Positions 1-54,071 of a DNA stretch of 64,000 nucleotides are shown here, one piece after another. This DNA is from Promethearchaeota archaeon (GTDB lineage: Archaea; Asgardarchaeota; Lokiarchaeia; Sigyniarchaeales; SOKP01): the NCBI GenBank assembly GCA_019058295.1, contig JAHPZI010000022.1:26586-90585 (forward strand). Direction: 5' to 3'. The position numbers were made by a program, and so were the translations under genes. The notes beneath the pieces are model-generated. The model made no database searches and was not told where the DNA came from. It saw nothing but the letters and a program-made list of their open reading frames with translations. How positions within the stretch are numbered: the first letter of the stretch is position 1; every line of letters begins with the position of its first letter.

Positions 1-434
1 ATAGAGCAACTAACATAAGAGCTAAATTCGAAAGACAAATTGAAGCTATAGAAGAAGGTTCAGCAATCGCACAATCAGGAAATTTTATGGCTCAAATGCG
101 TGATGAGCTAAAAACAATAGCAACTAAGGCATCCCCCGTAAAAATTGCAGAAGTTGCTGAAGATTCTGAATTATATGTCTCCGAAATTGAGGAAGCAGGA
201 GATATCCTCGCGGGAGATCCAGAAATAGATTTAGGTATTGATGTAACATCAGAATTAAACCAACTTGAAACCGAAATATTGCTTGATGCTAGCGGATCGA
301 TGCCAACGGTACCTACTGGAGGAGAAATGCCCCAATATATTTCGGACGTCGATCTCGATTTCGAAGCTGAGGAAGCCACTTCAAAGGCTAAACTTGAGGA
401 AGAGATAGAAAAATTGAGGAAGGAACTAGAATAA
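1..434 (+). CDS. 3' part of an ORF entering from upstream; acidic coiled-coil tail, possibly ESCRT-III/Snf7-family
   Basis: Frame 3 is open from base 3 (RATNIRAKFERQIEAIEEG...) into track ORF 87..434. It has a D/E-rich linker with a proline patch (SGSMPTVPTGGEMP) and a terminal amphipathic helix (EEEIEKLRKELE) like MIM-type tails. Family assignment is by eye only. Confidence 0.35.
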   Translation, partial: RATNIRAKFERQIEAIEEGSAIAQSGNFMAQMRDELKTIATKASPVKIAEVAEDSELYVSEIEEAGDILAGDPEIDLGIDVTSELNQLETEILLDASGSMPTVPTGGEMPQYISDVDLDFEAEEATSKAKLEEEIEKLRKELE

Positions 435-490
435 TAAAATAATATCTTCTTTTTTAAAAAATTTAAATTTAGTTGGCGAAAAATATACTT

Positions 491-1513
491 CTATTTAATT
501 TCCTGTAAAGCCTTAACCATATTACTTAATTTTCCTAGAGCAATTTTATATCCATTTGCTTCTCCAAACGTTTTAAGTAAAGGGCCAAATCCACAATCGG
601 GTTTAATAACTAAATTCTCCTTGCCGTATAAATCAATTGCTTTTTTTATATATTTTTTAAGAAAATCAATTTTCTCCACATAGTCCTCTATTTCACCATT
701 TTTCATGGGAGCTACTTTAGTTTTTACTGTACCTATAGCTAAATATTTATCAGTATTCTCGAAATGTTTTTTTTCAAATATTCTAAAGTTACTTTCATTA
801 TCAATGAACTCGTGGTCCATCACCTTTACATCAGTTTGTAAAAGTAAATCACGTAATTTTGGACTGATTTTGCCACAACAATGCACAGATGATAAGTCTT
901 TTATCCCAGAGAGAGCCTTATTAAGTGTTTCCACAATAAAATCTTCTGTGTGGAACCAAACCTTTCTTCCTACTAGAAGTCCTAATATTGGTTCGTCCAT
1001 AGAAATGATATTTATACCCATATCGCTATATGCTTTTCCTATTTTCTTCATAATCTCAGCTAATTTATCTACAATCCATCCTTCCATTATTGCTCTTGCT
1101 TCTTTAAAAATCACAGGATTTATTCCTTCAGCAAGCTTATCTTTTAAAATGATTTCACTAGCTAAAGTAAAGGGGCCTGTTAAACATGCTTTGGTACCTT
1201 TTATTAGACTTTTAAGCCCAGGATTTTCATTCAGAAAATCAACCATAAATTGTCCATATTCTAAAGCAATAGGCTTATCTGGAATCTTAAAATCATCATT
1301 TAAAAAGAACTTTTCATCAATTTCATCTAATGGGTCAATGATTTTAGCTAAGGGTGATAAGAATTGATAATTCATTCCAATAAGTTGAGGATAGCATGGG
1401 TAATCAATTCCAATATTAATCTCATCATTGAATGCTTTTTTCATGTTTTCCTCAGTATTACTTAAGGGAAAGCTGCCAACTACTGTAGTAAACAATCCTT
1501 CTTTTTTTACCAT
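491..1513 (-). CDS. Cobalamin-independent methionine synthase-like (MetE C-terminal/core type) Zn methyltransferase
   Basis: 340 aa. N-terminus TTVVGSFP is typical of archaeal MetE-like proteins. Zn-ligand-like motifs VHCCG and KPDCGFG are present. Confidence 0.6.
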   Translation of the reverse strand: MVKKEGLFTTVVGSFPLSNTEENMKKAFNDEINIGIDYPCYPQLIGMNYQFLSPLAKIIDPLDEIDEKFFLNDDFKIPDKPIALEYGQFMVDFLNENPGLKSLIKGTKACLTGPFTLASEIILKDKLAEGINPVIFKEARAIMEGWIVDKLAEIMKKIGKAYSDMGINIISMDEPILGLLVGRKVWFHTEDFIVETLNKALSGIKDLSSVHCCGKISPKLRDLLLQTDVKVMDHEFIDNESNFRIFEKKHFENTDKYLAIGTVKTKVAPMKNGEIEDYVEKIDFLKKYIKKAIDLYGKENLVIKPDCGFGPLLKTFGEANGYKIALGKLSNMVKALQEIK

Positions 1514-1602
1514 AAAAATAAATAAGTAATAATAATTTTTAAAACTCGTAGAAAAAAATAAAATACAGAAGTGTGTATTGCTTTTTTAAAATAAATTGTC
1601 TT

Positions 1603-3570
1603 TTAAGAATAATATCCTTTTTTATTGAATCTTCTTCTTAAAGACTTATCATTTTTAACCTTGTTAGTTAAAGATTTGATTTTCTTTTCAATTAAGTAAA
1701 CTTCTTTTTGTAGATTTTTGAATGTCTTGAAATACATTGCTTGATCAATAATACCTTCATTGAATTTGGCATCAAGTTTTTTTATTGTTTCCTTTAGACT
1801 AAATCTTTCCTTTTTGAGGTCGATCAACTTATTATAAAGCTTTTTATCAAATTCAAATAAATGGTCGTCATCGTATAAGATGTTGTCTATTGGAGGTTCT
1901 TCATGGTTAAATAGCCCATACAAATGATTTTTATGAAAATCATTAAATGAATGATTAATATTTCCGGGGAAGGGTGGATTAAAATCCCGATAATTATCTC
2001 TTTCGTTGAATAAGTCCCCTGATAATCCATAATTAGGATGTGGAAATTGTTGATCAAACTTTTGGGCTTTTTTTAATCTTTTCATCAAGATATTTCTTTC
2101 ATCAACGTCGCGAAATCTTCCATTATATTGATGATTATCCATAGGTCGGAAATTCTGATGCATGTAAGGGTTATAGATATTTCTATAATAATTATGATCT
2201 TCTGGATTTGGCGATTGAGAATTAATATCACTAAATAAAATTGATTCTTCGTTTGGGTCATTCATAGAATAGTTGTTATATCCTTTTTGAGCCCAATATT
2301 GCGGATAATTTAGAGGATTGTTGAAATAAACTTCATCTTCTTTATTTTTATTGTTAATAATATCTTGATTTATTTGACATTTTATACTAAAAAATGAATG
2401 GATGCTTTCTTCAATATATCTTACTAAATCGCTCAAATCTAAATCCATTTCATGAAGTTGTTTTGCTGAAGCATGATCGTATATATCATTTTCTTTAAAT
2501 GCTCTTGCTAAAAGAATATATTCCATTATTTTTGAAACCATATTCGACGGAAATGAAAATTCATATTTTCCGTAATCGAATTGTAAAAATAATTTTCTGA
2601 ATAATTTTCCTTTATCCTTAATTTTAATTAAATCATCAATAGGAGCTTTAAAAATTAAGTCTTTTCTTTTTTTAATAAAACCAGATTCATGTACAAAAGA
2701 TAAATCAAAGTTGGTAATAAATAAAATCCCTTTACTTTTCCTTAATCTTTTTTGAGGATCTAATCCATTCATAAGTGTGGTATTAACTGCATAAATTGGC
2801 TTCTCTTTCTCTGCTAAATTTAGAAATTGCTGGTTAGGTAAAAAGATCTTAGTTATCTTATCAATGAATTGTAAATTTTTTTGGAAATACTCTAGTTTTT
2901 CATCAATTTCTTTTATATTTTTATTAACGAAATTATTAATAGAATCCTGATTTTGAGATACACTTTCTAAAATATTCTCTATTATCCTTATATTTGAATT
3001 AGGCTGATTATAAATATCAAAAAAATATTGCTTATTCAGTGCTAAATGACGGAAGTGTGCTTTGATTTTTTCTAGTAAATTCTCTTTTATATAGACAATT
3101 TGATTAAAAATAGCTAACAAATCTGATTCCATTTTGGGATAATGAAAACATCTTATTGGAGGACTCCTCGCATTTTTTATCTTATGTCTTATTAAATATA
3201 ATTTGTTAATTATATCCTTGTCTGGTATAAACGAGCGAGATAATTTAATTAATTCCAAAAATTTCTGTTCGAGTTCTTCTTTTTTTTCGTAAATATTAAG
3301 AACGTTATGAGAATGACACTTTGGGCAGGATTTAAAATGTTGAGTAATTTTATGCACGTTTTCCTTTCCGCATTCTTTACATACTTTTTTTTCCTCTTTC
3401 TCGTTATAAGTAATCTCCTTAGAATTGCAATCTTGGCATATAAAATCGTCTATGAAATCGTCGCGCAAACAGTCAGAACAACATGATATACCACAATCTT
3501 CGCAATAAAATAAAACATTCATTTCTCTATTACAAAATCGGCACAATTGCTTACTTTTTTGGACTGACAT
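1603..3570 (-). CDS. Multi-zinc-finger / coiled-coil / PH-GRAM-like / low-complexity protein, function unknown
   Basis: 655 aa. Six CxxC pairs lie in the first ~90 aa (CRFC..CEDC..CSDC..CQDC, then CKEC..CPKC). The central segment GILFITNFDLSFVHESGFIKKRKDLIFKAPIDDLIKIKDKGKLF resembles GRAM/PH-like folds. An N/Y/P/Q-rich region and a C-terminal coiled coil follow. Confidence 0.5.
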   Translation of the reverse strand: MSVQKSKQLCRFCNREMNVLFYCEDCGISCCSDCLRDDFIDDFICQDCNSKEITYNEKEEKKVCKECGKENVHKITQHFKSCPKCHSHNVLNIYEKKEELEQKFLELIKLSRSFIPDKDIINKLYLIRHKIKNARSPPIRCFHYPKMESDLLAIFNQIVYIKENLLEKIKAHFRHLALNKQYFFDIYNQPNSNIRIIENILESVSQNQDSINNFVNKNIKEIDEKLEYFQKNLQFIDKITKIFLPNQQFLNLAEKEKPIYAVNTTLMNGLDPQKRLRKSKGILFITNFDLSFVHESGFIKKRKDLIFKAPIDDLIKIKDKGKLFRKLFLQFDYGKYEFSFPSNMVSKIMEYILLARAFKENDIYDHASAKQLHEMDLDLSDLVRYIEESIHSFFSIKCQINQDIINNKNKEDEVYFNNPLNYPQYWAQKGYNNYSMNDPNEESILFSDINSQSPNPEDHNYYRNIYNPYMHQNFRPMDNHQYNGRFRDVDERNILMKRLKKAQKFDQQFPHPNYGLSGDLFNERDNYRDFNPPFPGNINHSFNDFHKNHLYGLFNHEEPPIDNILYDDDHLFEFDKKLYNKLIDLKKERFSLKETIKKLDAKFNEGIIDQAMYFKTFKNLQKEVYLIEKKIKSLTNKVKNDKSLRRRFNKKGYYS

Positions 3571-3717
3571 TTTAATTTTTAATCCTAACCTAAATTTAAT
3601 GAGAATTTAGTTTTAACAATAAAAGATATAATTTAGTTCAAAAATGAGTATGTTATTTGTGTATTATCTCTGAAATAAAAAAAAATAGATTTTTAAGTGG
3701 ATTTTCTCTATTAAATA

Positions 3718-3805
3718 CGCAAGGGGAGGGATTCGAACCCTCGAATGACATTATATCATTATCGGGATAGCAACCCGACGCACTCGACCACTATGCGACC
3801 CCTGC
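3718..3805 (-). tRNA. tRNA-Ser(GCU)
   Basis: Manual cloverleaf: acceptor GCAGGGG/CCCTTGC, anticodon loop TTGCTAT, long variable arm, T-loop TTCGAAT, discriminator G. Confidence 0.85.
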
Positions 3806-3814
3806 TTATATAAG

Positions 3815-3902
3815 CGCGACGGGTAGGATTTGAACCTACGGTGGTGTTGAGCCACTCCCACTCTCAAGGCGGGCACAATCAACCGAGCTCTGTCACCGTC
3901 GC
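3815..3902 (-). tRNA. tRNA-Ser(UGA)
   Basis: Acceptor GCGACGG/CCGTCGC, anticodon loop CTTGAGA, long variable arm, T-loop TTCAAAT, discriminator G. Confidence 0.85.
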
Positions 3903-3914
3903 TTTTTTTATGAA

Positions 3915-3998
3915 TACGGGAATGCGGATTTGAACCGCAGAACCTCCTTTGAGGAGTGAAGTTTGAATTCACTGCCTTTACCACTCAGCCATTCCCGC
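3915..3998 (-). tRNA. tRNA-Leu(CAA)
   Basis: Acceptor GCGGGAA/TTCCCGT (G1:U72), anticodon loop TTCAAAC, long variable arm, T-loop TTCAAAT, discriminator A. Confidence 0.85.
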
Positions 3999-4003
3999 TT
4001 TTT

Positions 4004-4087
4004 TACAGGGAGAGGGACTCGAACCCTCGTAGTTCCTGCGAACCCTGAATCCTAAATCCAGTACCTTTGCCGCTTGGTTATCCCTGC
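4004..4087 (-). tRNA. tRNA-Leu(UAG)
   Basis: Acceptor GCAGGGA/TCCCTGT (G1:U72), anticodon loop TTTAGGA, long variable arm, T-loop TTCGAGT, discriminator A. Confidence 0.85.
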
Positions 4088-4096
4088 TTAATAGAA

Positions 4097-4182
4097 TACA
4101 AGGGGAGGGATTTGAACCCTCGTACTCCCTGTGGAGAATAGATCTTAAGTCTATCGCTTTTACCTTTCTTAGCTACCCTTGC
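4097..4182 (-). tRNA. tRNA-Leu(UAA)
   Basis: Acceptor GCAAGGG/CCCTTGT (G1:U72), anticodon loop CTTAAGA, long variable arm, T-loop TTCAAAT, discriminator A. Confidence 0.85.
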
Positions 4183-4192
4183 TTACTTAAAA

Positions 4193-4265
4193 TGGGCTGG
4201 AGGGGACTTGAACCCCCGACCTCCGAGTTAAAAGCCCGTTGCGCTACCTGCTACGCTACCAGCCC
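4193..4265 (-). tRNA. tRNA-Lys(UUU)
   Basis: Acceptor GGGCTGG/CCAGCCC, anticodon loop CTTTTAA, T-arm GGGGG-TTCAAGT-CCCCT, discriminator A. Confidence 0.85.
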
Positions 4266-4273
4266 ATTTTTGA

Positions 4274-4349
4274 TAGGAGTGGAGAGGATTGAACTCTCGA
4301 CCACTGCGTTATAAGCACAGGGCTCTACCAATAACTAAGCTACACTCCT
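4274..4349 (-). tRNA. tRNA-Ile(UAU)
   Basis: Acceptor AGGAGTG/CACTCCT, anticodon stem CTGTG/CGCAG, loop CTTATAA (anticodon TAT), T-arm GAGAG-TTCAATC-CTCTC. The acceptor and T-stem are identical to those of tRNA-Ile(GAU) at 4856-4931. Confidence 0.8.
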
Positions 4350-4354
4350 ATTGA

Positions 4355-4427
4355 TACACCCGGTAGGATTCGAACCTACATCCCCTCGCTTCGAAGGCGA
4401 GTATCCTCTCCATTGGACTACGGGTGT
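4355..4427 (-). tRNA. tRNA-Arg(UCG)
   Basis: Acceptor ACACCCG/CGGGTGT (A1:U72), anticodon stem CTCGC/GCGAG, loop CTTCGAA, T-loop TTCGAAT. Confidence 0.85.
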
Positions 4428-4436
4428 GAAGTTTGG

Positions 4437-4510
4437 TACGGGCGTGTGGATTTGAACCACAATCCATGACTTATGAGACCATAATTCTTACCAGATTAAA
4501 CTACGCCCGT
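4437..4510 (-). tRNA. tRNA-Met(CAU), elongator-type
   Basis: Acceptor ACGGGCG/CGCCCGT (A1:U72), loop CTCATAA, anticodon stem ATGGT/GTCAT. The stem lacks the three G:C pairs of initiators. T-loop TTCAAAT. Confidence 0.75.
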
Positions 4511-4518
4511 ATATATAG

Positions 4519-4592
4519 TGGGGTTGGAAGGATTTGAACCCTCAACCTTTGATTTTGGAGACCACTGCTCTAAACCGCTAAGCTACAACCCC
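4519..4592 (-). tRNA. tRNA-Trp(CCA)
   Basis: Acceptor GGGGTTG/CAACCCC, anticodon loop CTCCAAA, T-arm GAGGG-TTCAAAT-CCTTC, discriminator A. Confidence 0.85.
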
Positions 4593-4600
4593 ATATTTAA

Positions 4601-4673
4601 TGAGGGTGGTAGGATTCGAACCTACGACCTTTAGATTAGAAGTCTAACACCTTATCCGCTAGGCTACACCCTC
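4601..4673 (-). tRNA. tRNA-Arg(UCU)
   Basis: Acceptor GAGGGTG/CACCCTC, anticodon stem TTAGA/TCTAA, loop CTTCTAA, T-loop TTCGAAT. Confidence 0.85.
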
Positions 4674-4681
4674 ATAATTAA

Positions 4682-4756
4682 TAGGAGAGATCGGATTTGA
4701 ACCGATGCAGTCTTCCTCGTAAGGGAAGATCCATAACCAGGCTAGGAGACTCTCCC
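4682..4756 (-). tRNA. tRNA-Val(UAC)
   Basis: Acceptor GGGAGAG/CTCTCCT (G1:U72), anticodon stem CTTCC/GGAAG, loop CTTACGA, T-loop TTCAAAT. Confidence 0.8.
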
Positions 4757-4763
4757 AAGATAA

Positions 4764-4837
4764 GGGGCATAGAGGGAATTGAACCCTCGATCCTACGATT
4801 AAGAGTCGCATGCTTTCCCTAACTAAGCCATATGCCC
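4764..4837 (-). tRNA. tRNA-Lys(CUU)
   Basis: Acceptor GGGCATA/TATGCCC, anticodon loop CTCTTAA, T-arm GAGGG-TTCAATT-CCCTC, discriminator C. Confidence 0.8.
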
Positions 4838-4855
4838 ATAGATGTGCCAATATGG

Positions 4856-4931
4856 TAGGAGTGGAGAGATTTGAACTCTCGAACCTATAGTTTATCAGAC
4901 TATCGCTCATTCCAGGCTGAGCTACACTCCT
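4856..4931 (-). tRNA. tRNA-Ile(GAU)
   Basis: Acceptor AGGAGTG/CACTCCT, anticodon stem ATAGT/ACTAT, loop CTGATAA, T-arm GAGAG-TTCAAAT-CTCTC. Confidence 0.85.
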
Positions 4932-4968
4932 ATTATTAGAAATTGAATTTGATATCTGATAACAAGAG

Positions 4969-5040
4969 TGGGATCAGAGTGACTTGAACACTCGCCCCAA
5001 GATCTTCATTCTTGTGCTCTCCCAGTTGAGCTATGATCCC
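4969..5040 (-). tRNA. tRNA-Phe(GAA)
   Basis: Acceptor GGGATCA/TGATCCC, anticodon stem CAAGA/TCTTG, loop ATGAAGA, T-arm GAGTG-TTCAAGT-CACTC. Confidence 0.85.
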
Positions 5041-5140
5041 TAAAATCTCCTCTGATTTTTTGAAGTCCACCTTTGGTCATTCTTAAATGACAATTTTTTC
5101 ATTTTTTTTTTTATTTTTTCACCTCATTTTTTTTATTTTA

Positions 5141-5213
5141 CGCCCCTAGTAGGGTTCGAACCTACACCGCCCGATTAACAGTCGGAGATGCTACCTATTA
5201 ACACTATAGAGGC
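5141..5213 (-). tRNA. tRNA-Asn(GUU)
   Basis: Acceptor GCCTCTA/TAGGGGC, anticodon loop CTGTTAA, T-arm GTAGG-TTCGAAC-CCTAC, discriminator G. It is separated from the other 15 minus-strand tRNAs by a 100-nt T-rich spacer. Confidence 0.85.
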
Positions 5214-5462
5214 ATGTTTGAAGTTGTTGAATTAAGATAAAAGAAAAAGTATAATGCAAAAGCTAAGAGCTATGAGAATATCTTGGAAGTACAAAAGATA
5301 AATAAGTGGATTGTCAGATTTAAGTAAAGAATTTACTGAATCAAACTGGAGGAGAGAAGATTATTGACGAGATTCACTCGCCACCTTTTCGATCTTAACT
5401 TAAATCTAAGTGAGGCCATAATACTATCATTATTATTAATTAAGTATTTAAATGTTTTGTTT

Positions 5463-5530
5463 AAATGGCTAAAACGATTAAAATGGGAAAGAAATGGGTA
5501 AGATAGTGAATGTGGGAAAAGAATGGGTAA
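5463..5530. repeat. Cluster of five AATGG(G) direct-repeat motifs in the divergent spacer of the tRNA array
   Basis: aaatggc (5463), aaatgggaaag (5481), aaatgggtaag (5492), aatgtgggaaaag (5509), gaatgggtaat (5521). TATA-like tttaaata/ttataaata boxes lie at about 5545-5575. Confidence 0.5.
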
Positions 5531-5577
5531 TTTTGAACGAAATATTTAAATATTTAATTTGTGATATTATAAATACA

Positions 5578-5690
5578 ATGAGACGTGCAAAAGTGGCAAC
5601 AACCACCTACCAGGATATAGGCGCCCCCGAGCAGGGGCAATATGATAGCGAATGCTATCACCAATAAAAAATTTTACCCGTCTCTATTGA
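5578..5690 (+). ncRNA. Candidate structured ncRNA (GC-rich island); strand and class uncertain
   Basis: Closing helix GAGACG (5580-5585) / CGTCTC (5679-5684) encloses three hairpins: GTGG-CAACAA-CCAC, GCCCC-CGAGCA-GGGGC and GATAGC-GAAT-GCTATC. It is much more GC-rich than the flanks, has TATA-like boxes 10-30 nt upstream, and is followed by T-runs. It also reads as a 29-aa ORF (5578-5667). Confidence 0.35.
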
Positions 5691-5805
5691 TTTCCTTATT
5701 CTTTCCTTAGTTTTCCTAACCTTGATCGCCGTTTTCTATATACTTTAAAATCCATTTATCACGTTACTTATTTTTTCAGAAAACGGGTAAAAGCTTCATA
5801 ATGAA

Positions 5806-5878
5806 GGACTGTGTAGTGTAATGGCATGCATTGAAGTTTGTGAATCTTCAGGAGGTGGTTCGATTCCGCCCACAGTCC
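5806..5878 (+). tRNA. tRNA-His(GUG) with encoded G-1
   Basis: G-1 (5806) pairs with C73 (5878). Acceptor GACTGTG/CACAGTC, anticodon loop TTGTGAA, T-arm GGTGG-TTCGATT-CCGCC. Confidence 0.85.
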
Positions 5879-5912
5879 TTCTTTCATAAATATAACGCAT
5901 AGAAAATAAAAA

Positions 5913-5986
5913 GGGGCTGTAATATCAATCGGAAGATACTTGGTGTTGCATACCAAGGGTTGTAGGTTCAAGTCCTACCAGCTCCA
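5913..5986 (+). tRNA. tRNA-Ala(UGC)
   Basis: Acceptor GGGGCTG/CAGCTCC with G3:U70, anticodon stem TTGGT/ACCAA, loop GTTGCAT, T-arm GTAGG-TTCAAGT-CCTAC. In my fold there is an apparent 3-nt (TAA) connector before D-stem TATC/GATA. Confidence 0.75.
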
Positions 5987-5993
5987 TAAAAAT

Positions 5994-6066
5994 ACTCCCG
6001 TAGTGTAGAGGACAAGCACTCCAAGCCTTGGACTTGGTAACGTCGGTTCGAATCCGTCCGGGAGTA
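5994..6066 (+). tRNA. tRNA-Gln(UUG), C33 variant
   Basis: Acceptor ACTCCCG/CGGGAGT (A1:U72), anticodon stem CCAAG/CTTGG, loop CCTTGGA (C at position 33), T-arm GTCGG-TTCGAAT-CCGTC with one U:U mismatch. Confidence 0.75.
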
Positions 6067-6083
6067 GTAATTTCATTGGAATT

Positions 6084-6157
6084 CTTGCTGTAGCTCAGAC
6101 AGGTAGAGCAGGGGACTGTAGATCCTTGGAGCGGAGGTTCAAATCCTCCCAGCAAGA
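6084..6157 (+). tRNA. tRNA-Tyr(GUA)
   Basis: Acceptor CTTGCTG/CAGCAAG with the C1:G72 pair typical of archaeal/eukaryal tRNA-Tyr, loop CTGTAGA, T-arm GGAGG-TTCAAAT-CCTCC. Confidence 0.85.
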
Positions 6158-6166
6158 CTAAGAAGC

Positions 6167-6241
6167 GGGGCACTAGTATAGTGGCTAGTATTCGCGACCG
6201 TCTATCGTGAGAAGGGGGATCGATACCCCCGTGCTCCGCCA
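6167..6241 (+). tRNA. tRNA-Asp(GUC)-like, non-canonical; CCA encoded
   Basis: Acceptor GGGGCAC/GTGCTCC (G3:U70), D-arm GTAT-AGTGGCTA-GTAT, anticodon stem CGCGA/TCGTG, loop CCGTCTA (C33, U37), T-arm GGGGG-ATCGATA-CCCCC (A54, A60), G73, then CCA at 6239-6241. Confidence 0.6.
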
Positions 6242-6262
6242 AAAAGCATTGGAAATAATCGT

Positions 6263-6337
6263 GCGGGATTCATCTAGCGGTCAGGATCATCGCCTTCCAA
6301 GTGATTCACGGGTGTTCAAATCGCCCATCCCGCACCA
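6263..6337 (+). tRNA. tRNA-Gly(UCC); CCA encoded
   Basis: Acceptor GCGGGAT/ATCCCGC, D-stem ATCT/GGAT, loop CTTCCAA, T-arm GGGTG-TTCAAAT-CGCCC, A73, then CCA. Confidence 0.85.
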
Positions 6338-6342
6338 ATAAA

Positions 6343-6420
6343 GGCACTGTGGCCAAGTTTGGACAAGGCAGCTTCCTTGTAAGTAGCCGAGCGGGGGTTC
6401 GAATCCTCCCAGTGCCTCCA
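6343..6420 (+). tRNA. tRNA-Thr(UGU); CCA encoded
   Basis: Acceptor GGCACTG/CAGTGCC, loop CTTGTAA, anticodon stem GCTTC/GTAGC with one mismatch, T-arm GGGGG-TTCGAAT-CCTCC, U73, then CCA. Confidence 0.8.
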
Positions 6421-6429
6421 GTAAAATAG

Positions 6430-6505
6430 GCATGCGTGGCTGAAAAGTTGAGGCGGGAGACTGCAGATCTCCTCTATGCAGGTGCAAGTCCTGCCGCGTG
6501 CTCCA
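6430..6505 (+). tRNA. tRNA-Cys(GCA); CCA encoded
   Basis: Acceptor GCATGCG/CGCGTGC, anticodon stem GGAGA/TCTCC, loop CTGCAGA, U73 (Cys identity element), T-arm GCAGG-TGCAAGT-CCTGC (G at position 55), then CCA. Confidence 0.8.
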
Positions 6506-6510
6506 ATCAA

Positions 6511-6585
6511 GCCCCTGTCATCTAGTAAGGTCAAGGATCCATGATTCTCAATCATGAAACGCAGATTCAAATTCTGCCAGGGGTA
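6511..6585 (+). tRNA. tRNA-Glu(CUC)
   Basis: Acceptor GCCCCTG/CAGGGGT (G1:U72), anticodon stem CATGA/TCATG, loop TTCTCAA, T-arm GCAGA-TTCAAAT-TCTGC. Confidence 0.8.
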
Positions 6586-6590
6586 TAAAT

Positions 6591-6665
6591 GCTTCCATGG
6601 TGTAGCTAGGTCAAGCATCGTAGGTTTTCACCCTGCGGACTCGGGTTCGAATCCCGATGGAAGCA
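6591..6665 (+). tRNA. tRNA-Glu(UUC)
   Basis: Acceptor GCTTCCA/TGGAAGC, anticodon stem GTAGG/CCTGC, loop TTTTCAC, T-arm TCGGG-TTCGAAT-CCCGA. Confidence 0.85.
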
Positions 6666-6675
6666 CTCATTAAAT

Positions 6676-6749
6676 GGGAGGGTAATCTAGCATGGAAGGA
6701 TCCTCGCTTTGGAAGCGAGATGTCGGGAGTTCAAATCTCCTCTCTCCCA
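6676..6749 (+). tRNA. tRNA-Pro(UGG)
   Basis: Acceptor GGGAGGG/CTCTCCC, anticodon stem CTCGC/GCGAG, loop TTTGGAA, T-arm GGGAG-TTCAAAT-CTCCT. Confidence 0.85.
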
Positions 6750-6756
6750 TTTTAAT

Positions 6757-7680
6757 TTAAACAAAAGCATCTAAACATGTTTGATTTTTAACTACTTGAA
6801 TCCTCTTATTTGCGAGTTCAATGTATTCCTTTGAGATTTCATATCCTACATAATGTCGTTTTAGTTTTAAGGCAGCAATTGCAGTTGTACCTGAACCTAT
6901 AAAAGGATCTAATATTACATCTCCCTCAAAGGAATAAATCTCAATTAAACGACGAGGCAATTCTTCTGGAAATGGAGCAGGATGCCCTATTTTTTTGGCT
7001 GAATCTGCTGGAAAATTCCAAATAGATTTTGACCATTCAACGAAATCTTCCTTTTTTATCGTATTTACTTTGTTTCCTTTTTCAAGTCTATTTGAAAGTT
7101 TTGAGAATACTAATATATACTCGTGTATATCTCTGAGACAAGGATTACTTGCCGAAGCGAAAGATCCCCAAGCGGTTGAAACACCGGCTGATGCTCCCTT
7201 ATTCCAAATGATTTCGCCGCGCATATGAAAACCAATTTGATGCATTATTTCAATAATATATGCGTGTAATGGAATGTATGGTTTCCGCCCAACATTTGCA
7301 ATATTTATTGCAGCTCTACCTCCAGGTACTAAAACTCTCCAAGTTTCTTTAAGAACATCTTCAAGTAATTTTAAATATTCAACAAGAGTCAAATTATCAT
7401 CATAATCTTTTCCAACGCCATAAGGAGGACTGGTTATCATTAGATGTACTGAATTATCAGGTAATAAGTCTATTTTGCGACTATCTCCTTGAATTATCTG
7501 ATCTAAAGCTTTTTTTGGAATTTTATCTGAATTATCAACGTATTTAACTTTTTGTAGTTTGTTTAAACCTTTATATAAATTTGAATTATAAAAGAGAGAT
7601 GAATCGTGGTTTTCCCGTTTTGAAACTCCAAAAGAACTAGTTTTTGTACCTTTTTTTGGAGTTTCCTTTTTATTTACCAT
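6757..7680 (-). CDS. DNA methyltransferase, beta-class N4-cytosine/N6-adenine type (apparently orphan)
   Basis: 307 aa. Motif IV is ITSPPYGVG, followed by the C-terminal AdoMet motif I LDPFIGSGTTAIAA. This order (IV before I) is typical of beta-class amino-MTases. No nuclease-like neighbour is present. Confidence 0.8.
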   Translation of the reverse strand: MVNKKETPKKGTKTSSFGVSKRENHDSSLFYNSNLYKGLNKLQKVKYVDNSDKIPKKALDQIIQGDSRKIDLLPDNSVHLMITSPPYGVGKDYDDNLTLVEYLKLLEDVLKETWRVLVPGGRAAINIANVGRKPYIPLHAYIIEIMHQIGFHMRGEIIWNKGASAGVSTAWGSFASASNPCLRDIHEYILVFSKLSNRLEKGNKVNTIKKEDFVEWSKSIWNFPADSAKKIGHPAPFPEELPRRLIEIYSFEGDVILDPFIGSGTTAIAALKLKRHYVGYEISKEYIELANKRIQVVKNQTCLDAFV

Positions 7681-7774
7681 TATTAAAGAAGTAGAATAGA
7701 AGATATTTAAAACTCGATAACACCATGTTATTAAGAAAATTATGACTTAAAAAAGTAAACTTCTGGCAAGTTAT

Positions 7775-8506
7775 CTAACTAGAATCTGAGAAAATCTCTA
7801 TGAGAATGATGAAGATCCTAATTATAACGTTTATCATATCTAAGAAAATTTCTATAACTGCTAACATCCAATATCCTTCACTCACAGTCTGAGGTAATCG
7901 AGATCCATCCCAGAGGATAACACCAAAAAGCCAGATTAAAACAAGAATGCTAGTAATTATTAATATTGGATTGGAACCAAAAATTAATATTAGGGAGAAC
8001 TCCAAAATAATAAGAATGCCTCCAAATAAAAGTAAAGGATAGATCCATTTTATACTAATTTTATCTCTAAAAATTAAGCCCATTATTAGTAACCCAAGCG
8101 TAACCAGAAACCCAACTAAAAAAGCAATGAAAAATAAGCCCAGTACTATTTCTAATATGAAAATGGAGGAAGCCCATATAAGTAGAGTGGAACTTAACAT
8201 TCCAGAAACTAAACTAGCAAAAATAAAAATCACCATTGATAAGATATTTTGTCTTTTAAGTGCCATGATGACGGTTACTATCCATAATACAATATAAATG
8301 ATTAATAAAAAAATGATAAATCCTACTGTCATTGGTAATATAACTGGACCTACAAGACCACTAAAACCTATAGTAGTTCCAACCCATATTATCAGCCCAA
8401 TCAAGAATACAGGTAGAGTTTTATAATAAAAATCCTTACCTAATATCTTATCACCTTCCTTTCGTTTAGTTTGCGAGCTTAAAACCATCGTTTTCTTCTC
8501 CTCCAA
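7775..8506 (-). CDS. Bax-inhibitor-1/YccA (TMBIM)-like 7-TM membrane protein
   Basis: 243 aa and polytopic. The C-terminal motif AVIEIFLDMINVIIRIFIIL resembles the conserved LYLD.INLFL.LLRI end of the BI-1 family. Confidence 0.5.
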   Translation of the reverse strand: MEEKKTMVLSSQTKRKEGDKILGKDFYYKTLPVFLIGLIIWVGTTIGFSGLVGPVILPMTVGFIIFLLIIYIVLWIVTVIMALKRQNILSMVIFIFASLVSGMLSSTLLIWASSIFILEIVLGLFFIAFLVGFLVTLGLLIMGLIFRDKISIKWIYPLLLFGGILIILEFSLILIFGSNPILIITSILVLIWLFGVILWDGSRLPQTVSEGYWMLAVIEIFLDMINVIIRIFIILIEIFSDSS

Positions 8507-35046: not shown

Positions 35047-36765
35047 TTATTTTAATTTTCTTTTTATTTTTCGTGGTTTTCTAAGTTCTTTTTTCTCAGG
35101 TTTTTCCTCTTCAATTAGTTTTTTCGTTGGTTTTGGTTTAGTAGGAGTAGGTTCTGGTTTTTTGGGTTTTTTCTCCTTTTTAGATCTTTTCTCCAAAGCT
35201 TCTATCTTTTCTTCAGGTTTATAAATTAACATTTTTGATTTCATAGTATAATAAGTTATTCCAGTGGCAACCAGAATACCGATGATTAACCCGATTATTA
35301 ACATAATCCAAGGTAAAATATTACTTAAAATATCTGGAATAACCGTAATTTTTTGGGGTGCTGTGTCGAAATCGTCATCTAAACCTACAGTTGCGCCATC
35401 AGTGTCAGTCACATAAACATAAACTTCCCAAGTTCCAGTAACTAATTCTGCCGTTCTAACAGTAATTTCAAGATCATCTTCGTATTCCCTTGTGATTTCA
35501 TATTCATCATCGTCTTCATTTATAAGCAAGAGGGTTATGTAAGCAACTCCCTCAATATCATATACATCAAATTCAAAGACTAAATCTTCTCCATAATTCA
35601 CAGATATGCTTTCGTCGGTATCATAATCATTAATTTCGTATCCATCGATTCCAGGGAGATTGTTTTTTACACTTATCGTACCCTTATATTCTTCAATTTC
35701 TTCGAAATTGTATAAGGTTTTGATTATATAATGATATATTCTCGCAGGATAGGTAGCATCAATAGAAAAAGTTGTTTTAAATCTTCCATCATATTTATTT
35801 GTCAATTCCGGGATATAAATACCACTATCTATAAGATTAAAAGATACATTTATTAATTCAATCCTTAAATCATTCTGAATATAGCTTACATTCGTATCAA
35901 GATTACAACTTTGCTCCCTAAATATTGAAGTTGGATTAAATATTATTGAAGTTAATATAGAAACAGGTAATAGAACTTTAAATTTAAAATATGCAACAGC
36001 TATCCTTTTATAATTATTATTTACATCAGTCATATTTACTTTTATGAAATAATTTTTATTCGTTTGTTCGTAAGTCTCGTTGATTTCTATTTTAATATGA
36101 AATAAATCATTTCCCACGTTAAAAATATTTTTTTGGATGCTTTCATCTACGTTATCTACGACGGTTATATTCCATTTAAAACTATATGGAACGAAATCAT
36201 AGACAATCAACGATGTTTCTAATGTTTCTCCTCTACGATATTCGGATTTTTCTGGATCTAAACCAATCAAACAATTTGATTTTACTGTAAAATTTGATAT
36301 TGTTGTTTGAGTATTTAAAATATCATCAGTTTTATTATAAACTACAAATTTAACTTCGTGAAATCCTAATGGAGCATTATATACTGGTCTATAAGTATAT
36401 GTAAAGTTTCCTTCCTGTCCAGTTACATTGTTCATAGCAAAAATTCCAACTGTATTATCGGGAAAATTAATTTTTATTTCCATACGTCTAACAGATTGAA
36501 AACCAGAAGCATTAACTGTAAAATTAACTGAATGTAAATCTTGTAAAAATCCTCTGTATATTTCCGATGCATTTTGGTGGATATTTGAATAATTCAGAGG
36601 TTTTAGTCCATTAGACATTTTTGGTTTAAATTTTATATCTAATTTATCTAAATCTTTGTTTTCTTCATTGGTTTGATTATTTGAAGAAATTATAGTAAAA
36701 TTAAGAAATAAACCAAACAATAAAAAAAATATTAAGATTGTTGAAATGGTATTTTTTCTTTTCAA
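35047..36765 (-). CDS. Surface-anchored protein, function unknown (many NxS/T sequons)
   Basis: 572 aa with an N-terminal signal/TM, a C-terminal TM (ILPWIMLIIGLIIGILVATGI) and a Lys/Pro-rich cytoplasmic tail (KKPKKPEPTPTKPKPTKK). Confidence 0.55.
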   Translation of the reverse strand: MKRKNTISTILIFFLLFGLFLNFTIISSNNQTNEENKDLDKLDIKFKPKMSNGLKPLNYSNIHQNASEIYRGFLQDLHSVNFTVNASGFQSVRRMEIKINFPDNTVGIFAMNNVTGQEGNFTYTYRPVYNAPLGFHEVKFVVYNKTDDILNTQTTISNFTVKSNCLIGLDPEKSEYRRGETLETSLIVYDFVPYSFKWNITVVDNVDESIQKNIFNVGNDLFHIKIEINETYEQTNKNYFIKVNMTDVNNNYKRIAVAYFKFKVLLPVSILTSIIFNPTSIFREQSCNLDTNVSYIQNDLRIELINVSFNLIDSGIYIPELTNKYDGRFKTTFSIDATYPARIYHYIIKTLYNFEEIEEYKGTISVKNNLPGIDGYEINDYDTDESISVNYGEDLVFEFDVYDIEGVAYITLLLINEDDDEYEITREYEDDLEITVRTAELVTGTWEVYVYVTDTDGATVGLDDDFDTAPQKITVIPDILSNILPWIMLIIGLIIGILVATGITYYTMKSKMLIYKPEEKIEALEKRSKKEKKPKKPEPTPTKPKPTKKLIEEEKPEKKELRKPRKIKRKLK

Positions 36766-36775
36766 ATTAATCTCC

Positions 36776-50376: not shown

Positions 50377-53300
50377 ATGAAAGGGAAGAACAAGAGTCTA
50401 ATTATTCTTTTAATCATAATACTACCACTTTTAATAATACTAAATGTTTCTCCTATAAATTCGAAAAATGATGACATGGTTATCGATGAATTAAATGAAC
50501 AGATTATAAACAAAAAAGAGCTAAGAAAACCTAAATCTTCAGGATCTTGGGATAATATCTATAGAATTCATATTAAAAATGATAATTGGTCTGCAACAGA
50601 TTTGCCATGGATTCAAAATCGAACTGGTACTTGGGACGACCCTCATATTATTGAGAATTTAACAATTAGTAGTAGTGGTGTGCGGGACGGCATTTTAATC
50701 GAAGATTCTAATCAATCCTTTATAATTAGAAATTGCACTATTCTTAATTGTGGAGATTCCATTATACCTCAAAATTATGGGGCTATTAAATTAATAAGGT
50801 CAAGTAATGGGACAATAATGGACAATAATTGTTCACTTAATTTTGCAGCAGGGATTTTTTTACAGGAAAACTGCAAGAATAATACTATTGTTAACAATAC
50901 GTTATTTAATAATATTGGCCCAGGCATTTCTTTAACTTCAGGATCAGGAGATGGCTGTCAGAATAACAATATTTCCGGAAATATTATTTGCCACAATAAA
51001 GCTGATGGTTTAATATTAGATAGAAGCAATTACAATAACATCACAGACAATACTATCTATAAAAATAGCTTAGCAGGAATTGATATAATGGATAGTAAAT
51101 ATAACATAATTTTAGGGAATAAAGTATATAATAATTCTATGTGGGGTCTTTTAATAATGGGAGATAATACCAGTATAATTAATAATAGGATTTATGATGG
51201 TATTACTTTGTATATAGGGGAAAACCTCACTCTACAAAACAATCAGTTATATAATTGTGGAATATCCATAGGTGGTGGTTCGGTTGAACAATGTGCCTCA
51301 AATAGAATAGATTTGTCTAATTTGGTAAACGGAAAACCACTTTATTACTATTGTAATAAAAGCGATCTTTCAAGTATTAATTTTTCATATGCTGGTAATC
51401 CAGGTCAAATAGTATTGTCGCATACTAGTAACTCAATTATAGAGGATATTACAATTTCTCATACTTCATATGCTATTTTTTTATCCTCTTGTAAAAATAT
51501 TACTATAAAAAACTCTAATTTAACCAAAAATAGTAATGGGATAATGTTAACTGGTTCTTCCTATAATAATGTATCTGGAAATGAAATAAACGACAATAAA
51601 TACTACGGAATTATTATGAGAATTAGTTCTTACAATAATATTACTCAGAATAACATAAGTAATAATGAAAATGGTATTTATATGGATGCAGGAATGTACC
51701 ACTTTGGTAATGTGGATCATAATCTGATATCTGGAAATTTCATAAATCATAACTCGGAAGTGGGGATTAAAATTGATGGAGAAGCAAATTATAATACTAT
51801 TAAAAACAACACAATTAACTCTAATAATGATGGAATTAGTTTCTGGGGATATCGCCAATTTATGGGGTCAGATCATTGTACAGATAACTATTTTGTAAAT
51901 AATACTTTAAATTATAACTTTAGATATGGTATCTTTATTCGCGGATATCTTTCAGGTGATGTCTTTGATATATATACTTTTATTTTAGGTAATAAGATGA
52001 AATCATGTGGAATTGGTGTTAGAGGAGATACGGATGCACTTTCACAAATTACAATAAACAATGAAAATAAAGTAAATGGAAAGACAGTATATTATTATGT
52101 ATCAGAAAATGACTTAGGAAACGATAATTTTTCTACGTTTGGAGTTCCTGGTCAGATTATTTTAATAGACTGTAAAGACTCTTACATTTCAAATTTCAAT
52201 GTGTCTCATACTTCTATAGGCATCTCAATACAATTATGTGAAAATATTAGAATAAACAACAATACTGCTTCATTTAACTTCGGGGGTATAGAAGATGTTG
52301 AAGGTTTAAAAAACTATATTTTTAACAATACAGCTTCTCATAATAGGTATTACGGAATAAATCCATATACAACAAATTCTCCAGAAGTATCAAAAAACAT
52401 TTTAATCCAAAATAACAACTGGGGAATATATATTGAAAGTACTGTAAATGCAAATCTTACTGAAAATGAGATGGAAGGCTGTGGGATTGGAATCTACCAC
52501 TTTTTTGTTAGTGAAATTGATTCACATAATATCGAAACATCAAATACTGTTAATAGTAATCCTGTGTATTATTATAAAAATAAATTAAATTTGAATCCAT
52601 CAAATTTCTCAAATGCTGGACAGGTTATTTTAATTAACTGCAATAATTCCTTAATATCAAACATAGATGTTTCTGGTGGTTCGAAAGGATTATATCTAGT
52701 TAATTGCGAGAATAATACAATTTTGAATATCAATAGCTCGTATAATCTTTTCTCAGGGATTCACCTACGTGGATGTATGAATATAACAATTAAATTAGTC
52801 AATACATCATTAAATGCCGATGGTATTATAGTAGATTCTTCATTGAATAATACTATAAAAGAAAATTATATAGAAAATAATTACGGACAAGGTGTTTCTA
52901 TCTCTAATAGCCATGAAAATATTGTTTATAATAATACCTTTGTTAACAATGGTGTTAATGCAATTGATAATGGACAATTAAATAGATGGGATAATGGCTC
53001 TCTTGGGAATTTTTGGGATGATTATACAGGATTTGATGTGATTGCTCCTTTTGGTATAGGTGATACACCCTATCTTATACCTGGTTCTGCTGGAGCTAAA
53101 GATAATTACCCAATTTTCTATAAGGGAAGTGTACCCCCACTCAAAGTAATAATTATCGATCCTGCTGCTGGCACATATGGTCCTGCTTCTTTATTGATTA
53201 ATGCCTCAATAACCGATTCAAATAAAGCATTTGCAATGATTAATGCGACTATATCATTTAACATTTCCATGACAAAGTCAGGATCTTATTGGATCTGCTA

Positions 53301-53916: not shown

Positions 53917-54071
53917 TTAAAAAATTATTTCATTTTTTTCTTATTTTCAAGTCTTTTTTATTTATTAAATGCTAATAAATTGGATTTGTTTTTTTATAAT
54001 AATTCTTAAATAATGTTAAATTGATATTTAATTATTGAATTTTTAGTAAAATCTACCAAAAATGACAAAAA

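Follow-up and report, generated by a model that had tools for sequence, protein, structure and literature searches.

A compact bidirectional array of 27 tRNA genes on an Asgard archaeal chromosome

Structure of the tRNA array

Here we describe an array of 27 tRNA genes in a 64,000-nt stretch of DNA from a Promethearchaeota archaeon (assembly GCA_019058295.1, contig JAHPZI010000022.1, positions 26,586 to 90,585 of the forward strand). This whole stretch is referred to as the window, and all positions are counted from its first letter. The genes, as called by ARAGORN, occupy 3718-6750 and form two diverging arms. The minus-strand arm (3718-5214) has 16 genes and the plus-strand arm (5806-6750) has 11, and a spacer of 591 bp (5215-5805) lies between them. 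The Rfam family RF00005 supports 26 of the 27 at 47 to 76 bits. The 27th, the Asp gene, is found at 6167-6238 with 40 bits in a sensitive Rfam scan. The gathering score of the family is 29 bits and is exceeded by all 27 genes, so the covariance model rejects none of the calls. The initial annotation of this DNA, made from the letters alone, had proposed a tightly packed bidirectional array of 27 genes around a spacer of ~590 bp, and ARAGORN and Rfam bear this out.

The gaps between genes, counted from position 73 to the next +1, range from 5 to 37 nt and are mostly 5-12 nt (median ~8-9). The single large gap, of 100 nt, lies between Asn and Phe. With 27 genes in 3,033 bp the density is 8.9 per kb. 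A tRNA array unit, as defined by Tran et al. 2016 (PMC4758250), has at least 20 tRNA genes and at least 2 per kb, and the array exceeds both values. It also exceeds the at least 10 archaeal-type tRNA genes and at least 2 per kb by which Morgado and Vicente 2019 recognize a cluster (PMC6333295). The genes and their Rfam scores are as follows.

3718-3805, minus strand: tRNA-Ser(GCU), 55.5 bits; last gene of the minus arm; long variable arm, G73
3814-3902, minus strand: tRNA-Ser(UGA), 49.1 bits
3915-3998, minus strand: tRNA-Leu(CAA), 52.6 bits; 100% identical in L158
4004-4087, minus strand: tRNA-Leu(UAG), 53.4 bits; non-orthologous gene instead in TEKIR_6S
4097-4182, minus strand: tRNA-Leu(UAA), 61.6 bits; non-orthologous gene instead in TEKIR_6S
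4192-4266, minus strand: tRNA-Lys(UUU), 66.3 bits
4272-4350, minus strand: tRNA-Ile(UAU), 59.7 bits; A1-U72; 100% identical in L158 and TEKIR_6S
4355-4427, minus strand: tRNA-Arg(UCG), 69.3 bits
4434-4510, minus strand: tRNA-Met(CAU), 58.5 bits; elongator-like, A1-U72, CCA encoded, no G29-31:C39-41
4518-4592, minus strand: tRNA-Trp(CCA), 65.4 bits; G1-C72, A73, archaeal type
4600-4674, minus strand: tRNA-Arg(UCU), 76 bits
4681-4757, minus strand: tRNA-Val(UAC), 51.5 bits
4764-4837, minus strand: tRNA-Lys(CUU), 65.6 bits; C73
4853-4931, minus strand: tRNA-Ile(GAU), 62.6 bits; CCA encoded
4968-5040, minus strand: tRNA-Phe(GAA), 64.1 bits
5140-5214, minus strand: tRNA-Asn(GUU), 54.4 bits; first gene of the minus arm
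5806-5879, plus strand: tRNA-His(GUG), 49.7 bits; encoded G-1, C73; first gene of the plus arm
5913-5986, plus strand: tRNA-Ala(UGC), 48.6 bits; G3-U70
5993-6067, plus strand: tRNA-Gln(UUG), 53.1 bits; A1-U72, unusual C33
6084-6158, plus strand: tRNA-Tyr(GUA), 65.9 bits; C1-G72, short variable arm (archaeal/eukaryal type)
6167-6241, plus strand: tRNA-Asp(GUC), 40 bits, the weakest call; CCA encoded; atypical C33, U37, A54
6263-6337, plus strand: tRNA-Gly(UCC), 50.4 bits; A73, CCA encoded
6343-6420, plus strand: tRNA-Thr(UGU), 57 bits; U73, CCA encoded
6430-6505, plus strand: tRNA-Cys(GCA), 47.3 bits; U73, CCA encoded, atypical G55 in the T-loop
6511-6585, plus strand: tRNA-Glu(CUC), 55.5 bits
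6591-6666, plus strand: tRNA-Glu(UUC), 53.1 bits
6675-6750, plus strand: tRNA-Pro(UGG), 55.6 bits; end of the plus arm, with the stop codon of the convergent methylase gene 6 nt away

None of the array genes in the window has an intron, including when ARAGORN is run in intron mode. The earlier description of an intron-free array is thus true of these genes; a related array, on the metagenome contig L158, carries an intron in its Ser-UGA gene (see below). No other tRNA or tRNA fragment is present in the 64-kb window (ARAGORN including intron mode; Rfam at E<=1). By the same scans, a hidden initiator, an intron-bearing tRNA or a known non-coding RNA could be rejected for both the spacer and the window. 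The 3' CCA is encoded by six of the 27 genes and absent from 21. A derivation of the array from retro-copied mature tRNAs was considered on the basis of the CCA ends and dropped, because CCA is encoded in these six only and C is not over-represented right after the discriminator base in the other genes.

Decoding capacity

All 20 amino acids are covered by the array. Each of the eight four-codon boxes is served by one tRNA, with U34 every time. The seven pyrimidine two-codon boxes have G34, and the five purine boxes have U34; Leu, Lys and Glu each have a C34 tRNA in addition. The rest of the set consists of Met-CAU, Trp-CCA, Ile-GAU and Ile-UAU. This is exactly the anticodon list that the initial annotation had read from the sequence. 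If G34, U34 or C34 were taken at random in each four-codon box, U34 in all eight would have a probability of 1.5e-4. The same pattern from a random draw of 27 of the 46 standard archaeal anticodons has a probability of 3.7e-10.

The sole CAU tRNA has an A1-U72 pair and one G-C pair in the anticodon stem, and the three G-C pairs at 29-31:39-41 are missing. The single G-C pair in the stem shows that this is not a canonical initiator. A canonical archaeal initiator, met by chance on the metagenome contig L114, served as comparison. No initiator is present among the 27, as had been suggested. The accompanying suggestion that the locus could read all 61 sense codons stands only in part. Every codon box is covered, but the reading of all codons rests on four-way wobble by unmodified U34, a mode of decoding that is not known from archaea.

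Codon usage was counted over the 43 long open reading frames (ORFs) of the window. The codons served by C34 tRNAs, AAG (16.2 per 1000), GAG (13.7) and UUG (10.8), are the most used NNG codons of the split boxes, and those left without a C34 tRNA are CAG (3.8) and AGG (4.5). The restriction of C34 to the three most used of these codons indicates that the set is tuned to the AT-rich codon usage of the host. AUA is used at 38.9 per 1000 codons, which fits a dedicated Ile-UAU. Four-box codons ending in U or C make up 52% of all four-box codons, and the array has no G34 tRNA for them.

Identity elements and atypical members

The array tRNAs carry archaeal identity elements. Tyr combines C1-G72 with a short variable arm. 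A73 is found in Trp, together with G1-C72, and in Gly. Gln has A1-U72, Ala has G3-U70, and in His an encoded G-1 faces C73. The Arg anticodon for the CGN box is UCG rather than the bacterial ACG. These elements point to an archaeal and not a bacterial source of the array.

Several members have nucleotides that are rare in cellular elongators: Gln has C33, Asp has C33, U37 and A54, Cys has G55 and Lys-CUU has C73. L158 keeps all of these. The anticodon loops of most array tRNAs are canonical. The isoacceptor pairs of Glu, Arg and Lys share 57-70% identity, compared with 60 +/- 5% for unrelated tRNAs of the array. Since the pairs are no closer than unrelated tRNAs, the set looks mosaic.

Ile-UAU is reported from only two of 167 archaeal genomes, in which G34 tRNAs are rarely missing (PMC6000648). 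A lone native-type archaeal tRNA-Ile(UAU) with GC-rich stems was seen on the metagenome contigs L144, L128, L114, L101 and L108.

Genomic context and distribution

The array lies on an Asgard chromosome. The GC content of the window is about 30%, and its cellular genes include an XPD helicase, a RecJ/GAN-like protein, a class II aminoacyl-tRNA synthetase, MCH, a Ras-like GTPase, presenilin, ribosomal protein L35Ae and WD40 proteins; Snf7 is found just past the left end. Compared with species-representative genomes, the neighbouring MetE-like protein matches Promethearchaeota (Asgard) metagenome-assembled genomes (MAGs), with 94-95% identity in AMARA_1S and TEKIR_6S and ~75% in two MAGs labelled Thorarchaeota and Hodarchaeota by their submitters. 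Two genes flank the array directly.

1603-3570, minus strand: 'B-box zinc finger' protein gene, left flank; conserved in Asgard (261 homologues) and syntenic in L006, L007 and L184-L186
6757-7680, minus strand: N6/N4 DNA methyltransferase gene, right flank; syntenic in L184

In a Pfam scan the flanking ORFs were recognized as the methylase, a Bax1-I-like protein, L35Ae, WD40, the B-box protein and the MetE-like protein, and no TROVE, integrase, transposase or relaxase domain was found among them. The methylase was considered as a marker of a mobile element and ruled out, because it is syntenic in L184, which has no array. Genes for nucleases, toxins, RNA repair or defence do not adjoin the array.

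The same array is present at this locus in three to four close relatives, namely TEKIR_6S, L158 and an AMARA_1S-like contig. The TEKIR_6S contig (L005) has the full 16-gene arm and the spacer and stops in His. L158, a JGI metagenome contig, has all 27 genes and both flanks and is 93% identical to window 1932-6886. The Logan contig L002, from another run, has 23 of the array genes at 100% identity, and no tRNA is present in its extra 8 kb of left flank. The AMARA_1S-like Logan contig L187 starts in the 3' end of Ser-GCU. Between this gene and the B-box gene L187 has an ORF for a 115-aa zinc-ribbon protein (53-400; weak match to Zn_ribbon_IS1595), which is absent from the window.

The independent short-read assemblies L001, L002, L005 and L187 all end inside the array, in Cys, His or Ser-GCU; window 6494-6502 is one such site. 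The breaks probably fall at T-arm k-mers shared between the genes, and arrays of this kind are therefore likely to be under-reported in MAGs.

At the syntenic locus of five more distant Asgard genomes (L184, L185, L186, L006 and L007) neither ARAGORN nor Rfam finds a tRNA within the flanks scanned. In L184, in which the B-box protein is 65% identical to that of the window, two protein genes stand in place of the array. Synteny extends on one side over XPD, a glycosyltransferase, peptidase C69, L35Ae and the methylase and on the other over B-box, MetE-like, Snf7 and DHQS. The B-box side is also kept in L185 (53%), L186 (50%) and L006 and L007 (about 68%). In all, no tRNA is found in ~100 kb of sequence from related Asgard loci or in the remaining 61 kb of the window. 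The array is thus derived and lineage-specific, restricted to one genus-level clade, and is not an ancient Asgard tRNA operon. Had equivalent arrays proved common and already annotated in related genomes, this would have spoken against the initial annotation; that was not the case.

Sequence evolution of the array genes

Between the window and L158, 26 stem pairs of the array tRNAs have changed. Nine are double compensatory changes, 13 are one-sided changes that still pair and four are broken, and some of the pairs counted as broken are the optional eighth acceptor pair of ARAGORN. The comparison with TEKIR_6S gives seven double compensatory, ten one-sided still paired and six broken pairs. 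The array tRNAs of the window and L158 diverge by 3.1%, compared with 12-15% at four-fold sites of the flanking genes, and at least eight array genes are identical between the two. The preserved pairing and low divergence indicate that the array genes are functional and under selection and are not debris. In the anticodon stem of Gln, for example, an A-U pair is replaced in L158 by a G-C pair through a compensatory change.

Other members have been replaced or remodelled. In TEKIR_6S (L005 1651-1826, corresponding to window 4004-4182) the Leu-UAG and Leu-UAA genes are unrelated to those of the window (58-65% identity) and stand in swapped order. The tRNAs on either side are 94-100% identical, and the new Leu-UAA resembles Leu-CAA (71-74%). 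The Pro-UGG genes of the window (6675-6750) and L158 (4772-4845) have 13 differences, which include five double compensatory pairs; this looks like gene conversion or replacement from another copy of Pro-UGG. Ser-GCU differs by 13% between the window and L158. The Met-CAU gene of TEKIR_6S (L005 1321-1397) has two C.A mismatches in the acceptor stem, at 2:71 and 6:67, which hints at another elongator Met gene in that genome.

The Ser-UGA gene encodes CCA in two relatives and not in the window. In L158 (1900-1930, minus strand) its T-loop is interrupted by a 31-nt insertion with the structure of a canonical hBHBh' (bulge-helix-bulge, BHB) intron, its splice sites in the bulges. The intron sits at position 59/60, a non-canonical site with precedents in archaeal tRNA genes. 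The predicted fold has a 5-bp T stem, a 4-bp helix (TTCG/CGGA), 3-nt bulges (AA|A and AT|T) and a 5-bp hairpin (TTAAT/ATTAA), and excision in silico restores the T-loop TTCGAAT. G57 of L158, which is A57 in the window, completes the 4-bp helix and is a co-adapted change. The intron is absent from the window and TEKIR_6S copies. Its presence in L158 indicates that the array genes share in the intron dynamics of the host.

In general, sole-copy housekeeping tRNA genes change far less than this relative to synonymous sites. The gene replacement, the remodelling of Pro, the Met mismatches and the atypical nucleotides argue, indirectly, that the array is backed up by other genes. Further indirect pointers are the low likeness within the Glu, Arg and Lys isoacceptor pairs, the rarity among archaea of Ile-UAU and of missing G34 tRNAs, the lack of introns in comparison with the intron-rich tRNA genes of other Asgard classes, and the recurrence of the same anticodon design in the phage-like array L124.

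The central spacer and the array boundaries

The non-coding parts of the locus contain candidate signals for expression of the two arms.

5215-5805, no strand: divergent spacer, predicted promoter region of both arms; no Rfam match
5246-5260, minus strand: TATA-like motif TTTGCATTATACTTT, 32-46 nt upstream of Asn; putative promoter of the minus arm
5732-5746, plus strand: TATA-like motif TTTTCTATATACTTT, 60-74 nt upstream of His; putative promoter of the plus arm
~5590-5665, no strand: best-conserved block of the spacer, three consecutive hairpins; candidate regulatory site or small RNA
3677-3685, minus strand: T9 run on the transcribed strand, 32 nt past Ser(GCU); putative terminator of the minus arm
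6751-6759, plus strand: TTTTAATTT directly after Pro; putative terminator of the plus arm
3571-3717, no strand: left junction, from the array to the B-box gene; 147/147 identical in L158 and TEKIR_6S

The spacer is about 94% identical to those of TEKIR_6S and L158, which only equals the coding average. Conservation of the whole spacer was for this reason dropped as evidence of a functional element, and only the block at ~5590-5665 and the twin TATA-like motifs stand out. The two motifs (5246-5260 and 5732-5746) form a 15-nt inverted repeat, TTTKCWTATACTTT, and the one at 5732-5746 is kept in TEKIR_6S and L158. It is plausible that they are the promoters of the two arms.

The block at 5590-5665 has 2-3 substitutions across the two relatives and folding z-scores of -2.3 (plus strand) and -2.8 (minus strand); it matches no Rfam family. 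An ORF of 57 aa (5494-5667) overlaps it and is intact in three genomes. This ORF was examined as a possible gene and is probably not coding, because all of its substitutions are non-synonymous.

Motifs containing GGGTAA recur in the spacer and are candidate binding sites of a regulator. They comprise tandem copies of AAATGGGWAAG at 5481-5502 and 5515-5535 and a perfect 10-nt inverted repeat, TTTTACCCGT/ACGGGTAAAA (5672-5681 and 5783-5792), which brackets the predicted promoter of the plus arm. The left junction (3571-3717) is invariant while four-fold sites diverge by 12-15%, and these 147 bp may be a conserved element or the result of a recent exchange.

Comparison with known tRNA arrays

tRNA arrays are thought to be horizontally moving 'translation kits', and their function is debated between gene dosage, stress backup and anti-defence. 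The array described here extends the phenomenon to the Asgard archaea, in an unusually complete and compact form. No earlier report of a tRNA array in Asgard archaea was found in the literature.

In bacteria, L-arrays are supernumerary and are induced by translational stress in Anabaena (Santamaria-Gomez et al. 2021, PMC8421152), and arrays are also known from mycobacteria (PMC5966550). Like the L-arrays, the Asgard array has at least 20 packed tRNA genes in a non-periodic order, covers (nearly) all amino acids and is patchy among relatives. Their sporadic occurrence among close relatives is matched here by four carriers (the window, TEKIR_6S, L158 and the AMARA_1S-like contig) and five non-carriers. 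Unlike the L-arrays, it is composed of archaeal-type tRNAs, has Arg-UCG for Arg-ACG and is arranged in two divergent arms rather than one operon, and its sequence does not resemble that of the bacterial arrays retrieved in this study.

Among 2,481 genomes surveyed by Morgado and Vicente 2019 (PMC6333295; data of May 2018), archaeal tRNA clusters were confined to Halobacteria, Methanobrevibacter and Methanosarcina. No Asgard, TACK or DPANN genome had one, and the cluster of H. vallismortis was the only one to cover all 20 amino acids. These euryarchaeal clusters (10-29 genes, 2-9 per kb) share with the Asgard array the archaeal type of tRNA and some atypical members. They are redundant with other genomic tRNAs, and some contain pseudogenes (PMC6333295). 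Most have TROVE-domain or mobile-element genes, whereas the Asgard array has neither. It also differs in being bidirectional and in forming a strict one-per-box set.

The clusters of large phages and giant viruses resemble the Asgard array in the U34 tRNAs of the four-codon boxes, in the presence of Ile-UAU, Lys-CUU and Leu-CAA, in the AT-richer stems and in the atypical nucleotides. The Asgard array differs from them in having no viral genes nearby, syntenic chromosomal flanks and archaeal identity elements. In IMG/VR, a pattern for Ile-UAU directly followed by Lys-UUU matched 50 stretches, most with both tRNAs. The phage-like contig L124 (Ga0307375_10009842, 393-7933) has 26 bacterial-type tRNAs among small ORFs, with a long-arm Tyr and Arg-ACG, and shares 25 of its 26 anticodons with the array (Jaccard 0.89). 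These matches show that one U34 tRNA per box, combined with Ile-UAU, Lys-CUU and Leu-CAA, is a recurrent design of AT-rich mobile tRNA sets. The likeness to phage and bacterial arrays that was initially pointed out holds.

The Mollicutes and organelles likewise have one U34 tRNA per four-codon box in AT-rich genomes. There the set is the sole one and U34 is unmodified, which is unlikely for the Asgard array given the abundance of NNY codons and the 34-46 tRNAs of its relatives.

A donor of the array was not found. Neither phage nor plasmid records gave a BLAST match to the array, and IMG/VR lacks three exact 22-23-nt segments taken from invariant tRNAs. The arrays among the matches listed for looser patterns in IMG/VR and metagenomes were, apart from L158, unrelated ones of phages, giant viruses and bacteria. 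A degenerate Ile-UAU pattern matched at least 120 metagenome loci, and L158 is the only true relative among the matches listed. This pattern is too permissive, so the environmental spread of the array is under-sampled. A provirus or plasmid origin was rejected, because the BLAST and pattern searches of phage, plasmid and IMG/VR records gave no related array and the flanks have no viral, conjugation, replication or mobile-element genes.

Origin and role of the array

The findings establish the locus as a real, functional and lineage-specific tRNA array unit of an Asgard chromosome, composed of archaeal-type elongators in two divergent operons. The initial annotation had proposed that this is either the main tRNA operon pair of the organism or an acquired auxiliary set. 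The former is contradicted, in the form of an ancient Asgard operon, by the five array-free loci. The latter is favoured by the gene replacement, the relaxed constraint and the atypical nucleotides.

On balance, and from sequence comparison, we lean towards a domesticated, supernumerary set that arrived en bloc, was later tuned to the host and works next to housekeeping tRNA genes dispersed over the genome. In the bacterial terminology it would be a chromosomally fixed L-array. The one-per-box composition without G34 four-box tRNAs or an initiator, the turnover and the atypical nucleotides favour this reading. The block would have been inserted at a variable spot between conserved genes, after the clade split from its nearest sequenced relatives, and most likely came en bloc from an unsampled archaeal source. 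The twin TATA-like promoters would drive two polycistronic operons of 16 and 11 genes, and RNase P and tRNase Z would release the tRNAs from the precursors by cutting in the 5-20-nt spacers. Judged from established tRNA maturation, the 21 tRNAs without an encoded CCA would receive it from the CCA enzyme, and the Ser-UGA precursor of L158 would additionally be spliced at its BHB intron. The array would then be an extra tRNA pool that boosts or backs up the decoding of A/U-rich codons and not the sole set of the cell, with dispersed genes supplying the G34 four-box tRNAs and the initiator.

Several points weigh against a supernumerary set. No second copy of any of the array anticodons was seen in the scans, which covered the 64-kb window and ~8 kb of flank. 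The 27 genes and the 19 tRNAs that the array lacks (16 G34/C34 four-box tRNAs, Gln-CUG, Arg-CCU and the initiator) add up to the canonical 46 of MK-D1 (PMC11316595), so that none of its 27 anticodons need occur elsewhere in the genome. The fit to codon usage, the absence of mobile genes, the stable position in three to four species and the at least eight identical genes are equally expected of housekeeping genes. IMG/VR, the phage and plasmid records and the metagenome matches listed contain no donor. The promoters, processing and expression of the array are predictions.

The most serious alternative, which we consider possible although distinctly less probable, is a partition of the housekeeping set. 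The array would then hold the sole copies of 27 anticodons as the main operon pair, with ~19 other tRNAs dispersed, and would have formed within the clade by relocation or replacement of dispersed genes. The sum of 27 and 19 equals the tRNA count of MK-D1, and the match to host codon usage, the archaeal identity elements, the purifying selection and the many invariant genes all suit such a partition, as does the syntenic chromosomal locus without mobile-element genes. It leaves unexplained the exclusion of eight G34 four-box tRNAs when NNU and NNC make up 52% of the four-box codons. The Met mismatches, the two Leu replacements and G55, A54 and C33 would be risky in sole-copy genes. Moving 27 genes to one site is also unparsimonious when the relatives have no tRNA at the locus.

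A further-reaching reading, which we regard as doubtful, is that a domesticated foreign elongator set forms a second, separately regulated decoding system, or at the extreme has replaced the ancestral, intron-rich dispersed genes and reads the four-codon boxes with U34 only. A second system may serve as insurance against tRNA-cleaving toxins and viruses, or in translational stress. Either would be the first of its kind in archaea, in the lineage closest to eukaryotes.

Somewhat less likely still is that the array is a quiet reserve, used when tRNAs are cleaved by anticodon nucleases or translation is impaired. This would rest on analogy, as a backup role has been shown for the supernumerary, stress-induced L-array of Anabaena (PMC8421152) and proposed for phage and mycobacterial arrays, and the one-per-box set found here is complete. 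C33 in Gln and Asp and U37 in Asp are changes of the type able to block anticodon nucleases, and the conserved hairpins and repeats of the spacer could be regulatory. Most anticodon loops are canonical, however, and no nuclease, toxin, RNA-repair or defence gene adjoins the array. The buffer against tRNA-targeting nucleases that had initially been suggested thus finds no direct support.

That the array plus an initiator is the entire repertoire, read by U34 superwobble as in Mollicutes and organelles, is very improbable. Every codon box is covered once, the genome is AT-rich (about 30% GC), and the 64-kb window and ~8 kb of additional flank contain no further tRNA. The normal density of tRNA genes is one per roughly 100 kb, so an empty 64-kb window is uninformative on this point. 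The 52% of four-box codons that end in U or C speak against it, as do the rarity of G34 absence in 167 archaeal genomes (PMC6000648) and the 34-46 tRNAs of Asgard genomes of similar GC. Among Asgard isolates, 46 tRNAs are annotated in MK-D1 (PMC11316595) and 34 in Loki-B35.

A non-functional remnant of a virus or plasmid drifting to pseudogenes could be suspected from atypical members such as Asp (40 bits) and Cys (G55) and from the members that differ between relatives, but is scarcely credible given a tRNA divergence about one fifth of that at four-fold sites, the 22 of 26 changed pairs that still pair, the co-adapted BHB intron, the retention of 27 genes in two genomes that are 7% divergent and the absence of viral genes.

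The evolution of the array can be traced by comparison of the relatives, in which genes have been replaced or remodelled by compensatory changes and a BHB intron has been gained or lost. Introns are reported in 92-95% of the tRNA genes of Atabeyarchaeia and Freyarchaeia, two Asgard classes (PMC11291895). The contrast with these intron-rich genes provides a natural test of how tRNA organization, intron load and decoding evolve near the archaeal-eukaryotic boundary. Should the array prove redundant, it would be a tractable system in which to study the purpose of a second tRNA set.

Other features of the window

Two regions distant from the array contain long ORFs. Beside the gene for the class II aminoacyl-tRNA synthetase, at 35047-39604, are ORFs of 942 and 572 aa without a Pfam match. 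At 50377-57596 two adjacent genes encode proteins of ~1,175 aa with NosD/right-handed beta-helix repeats.

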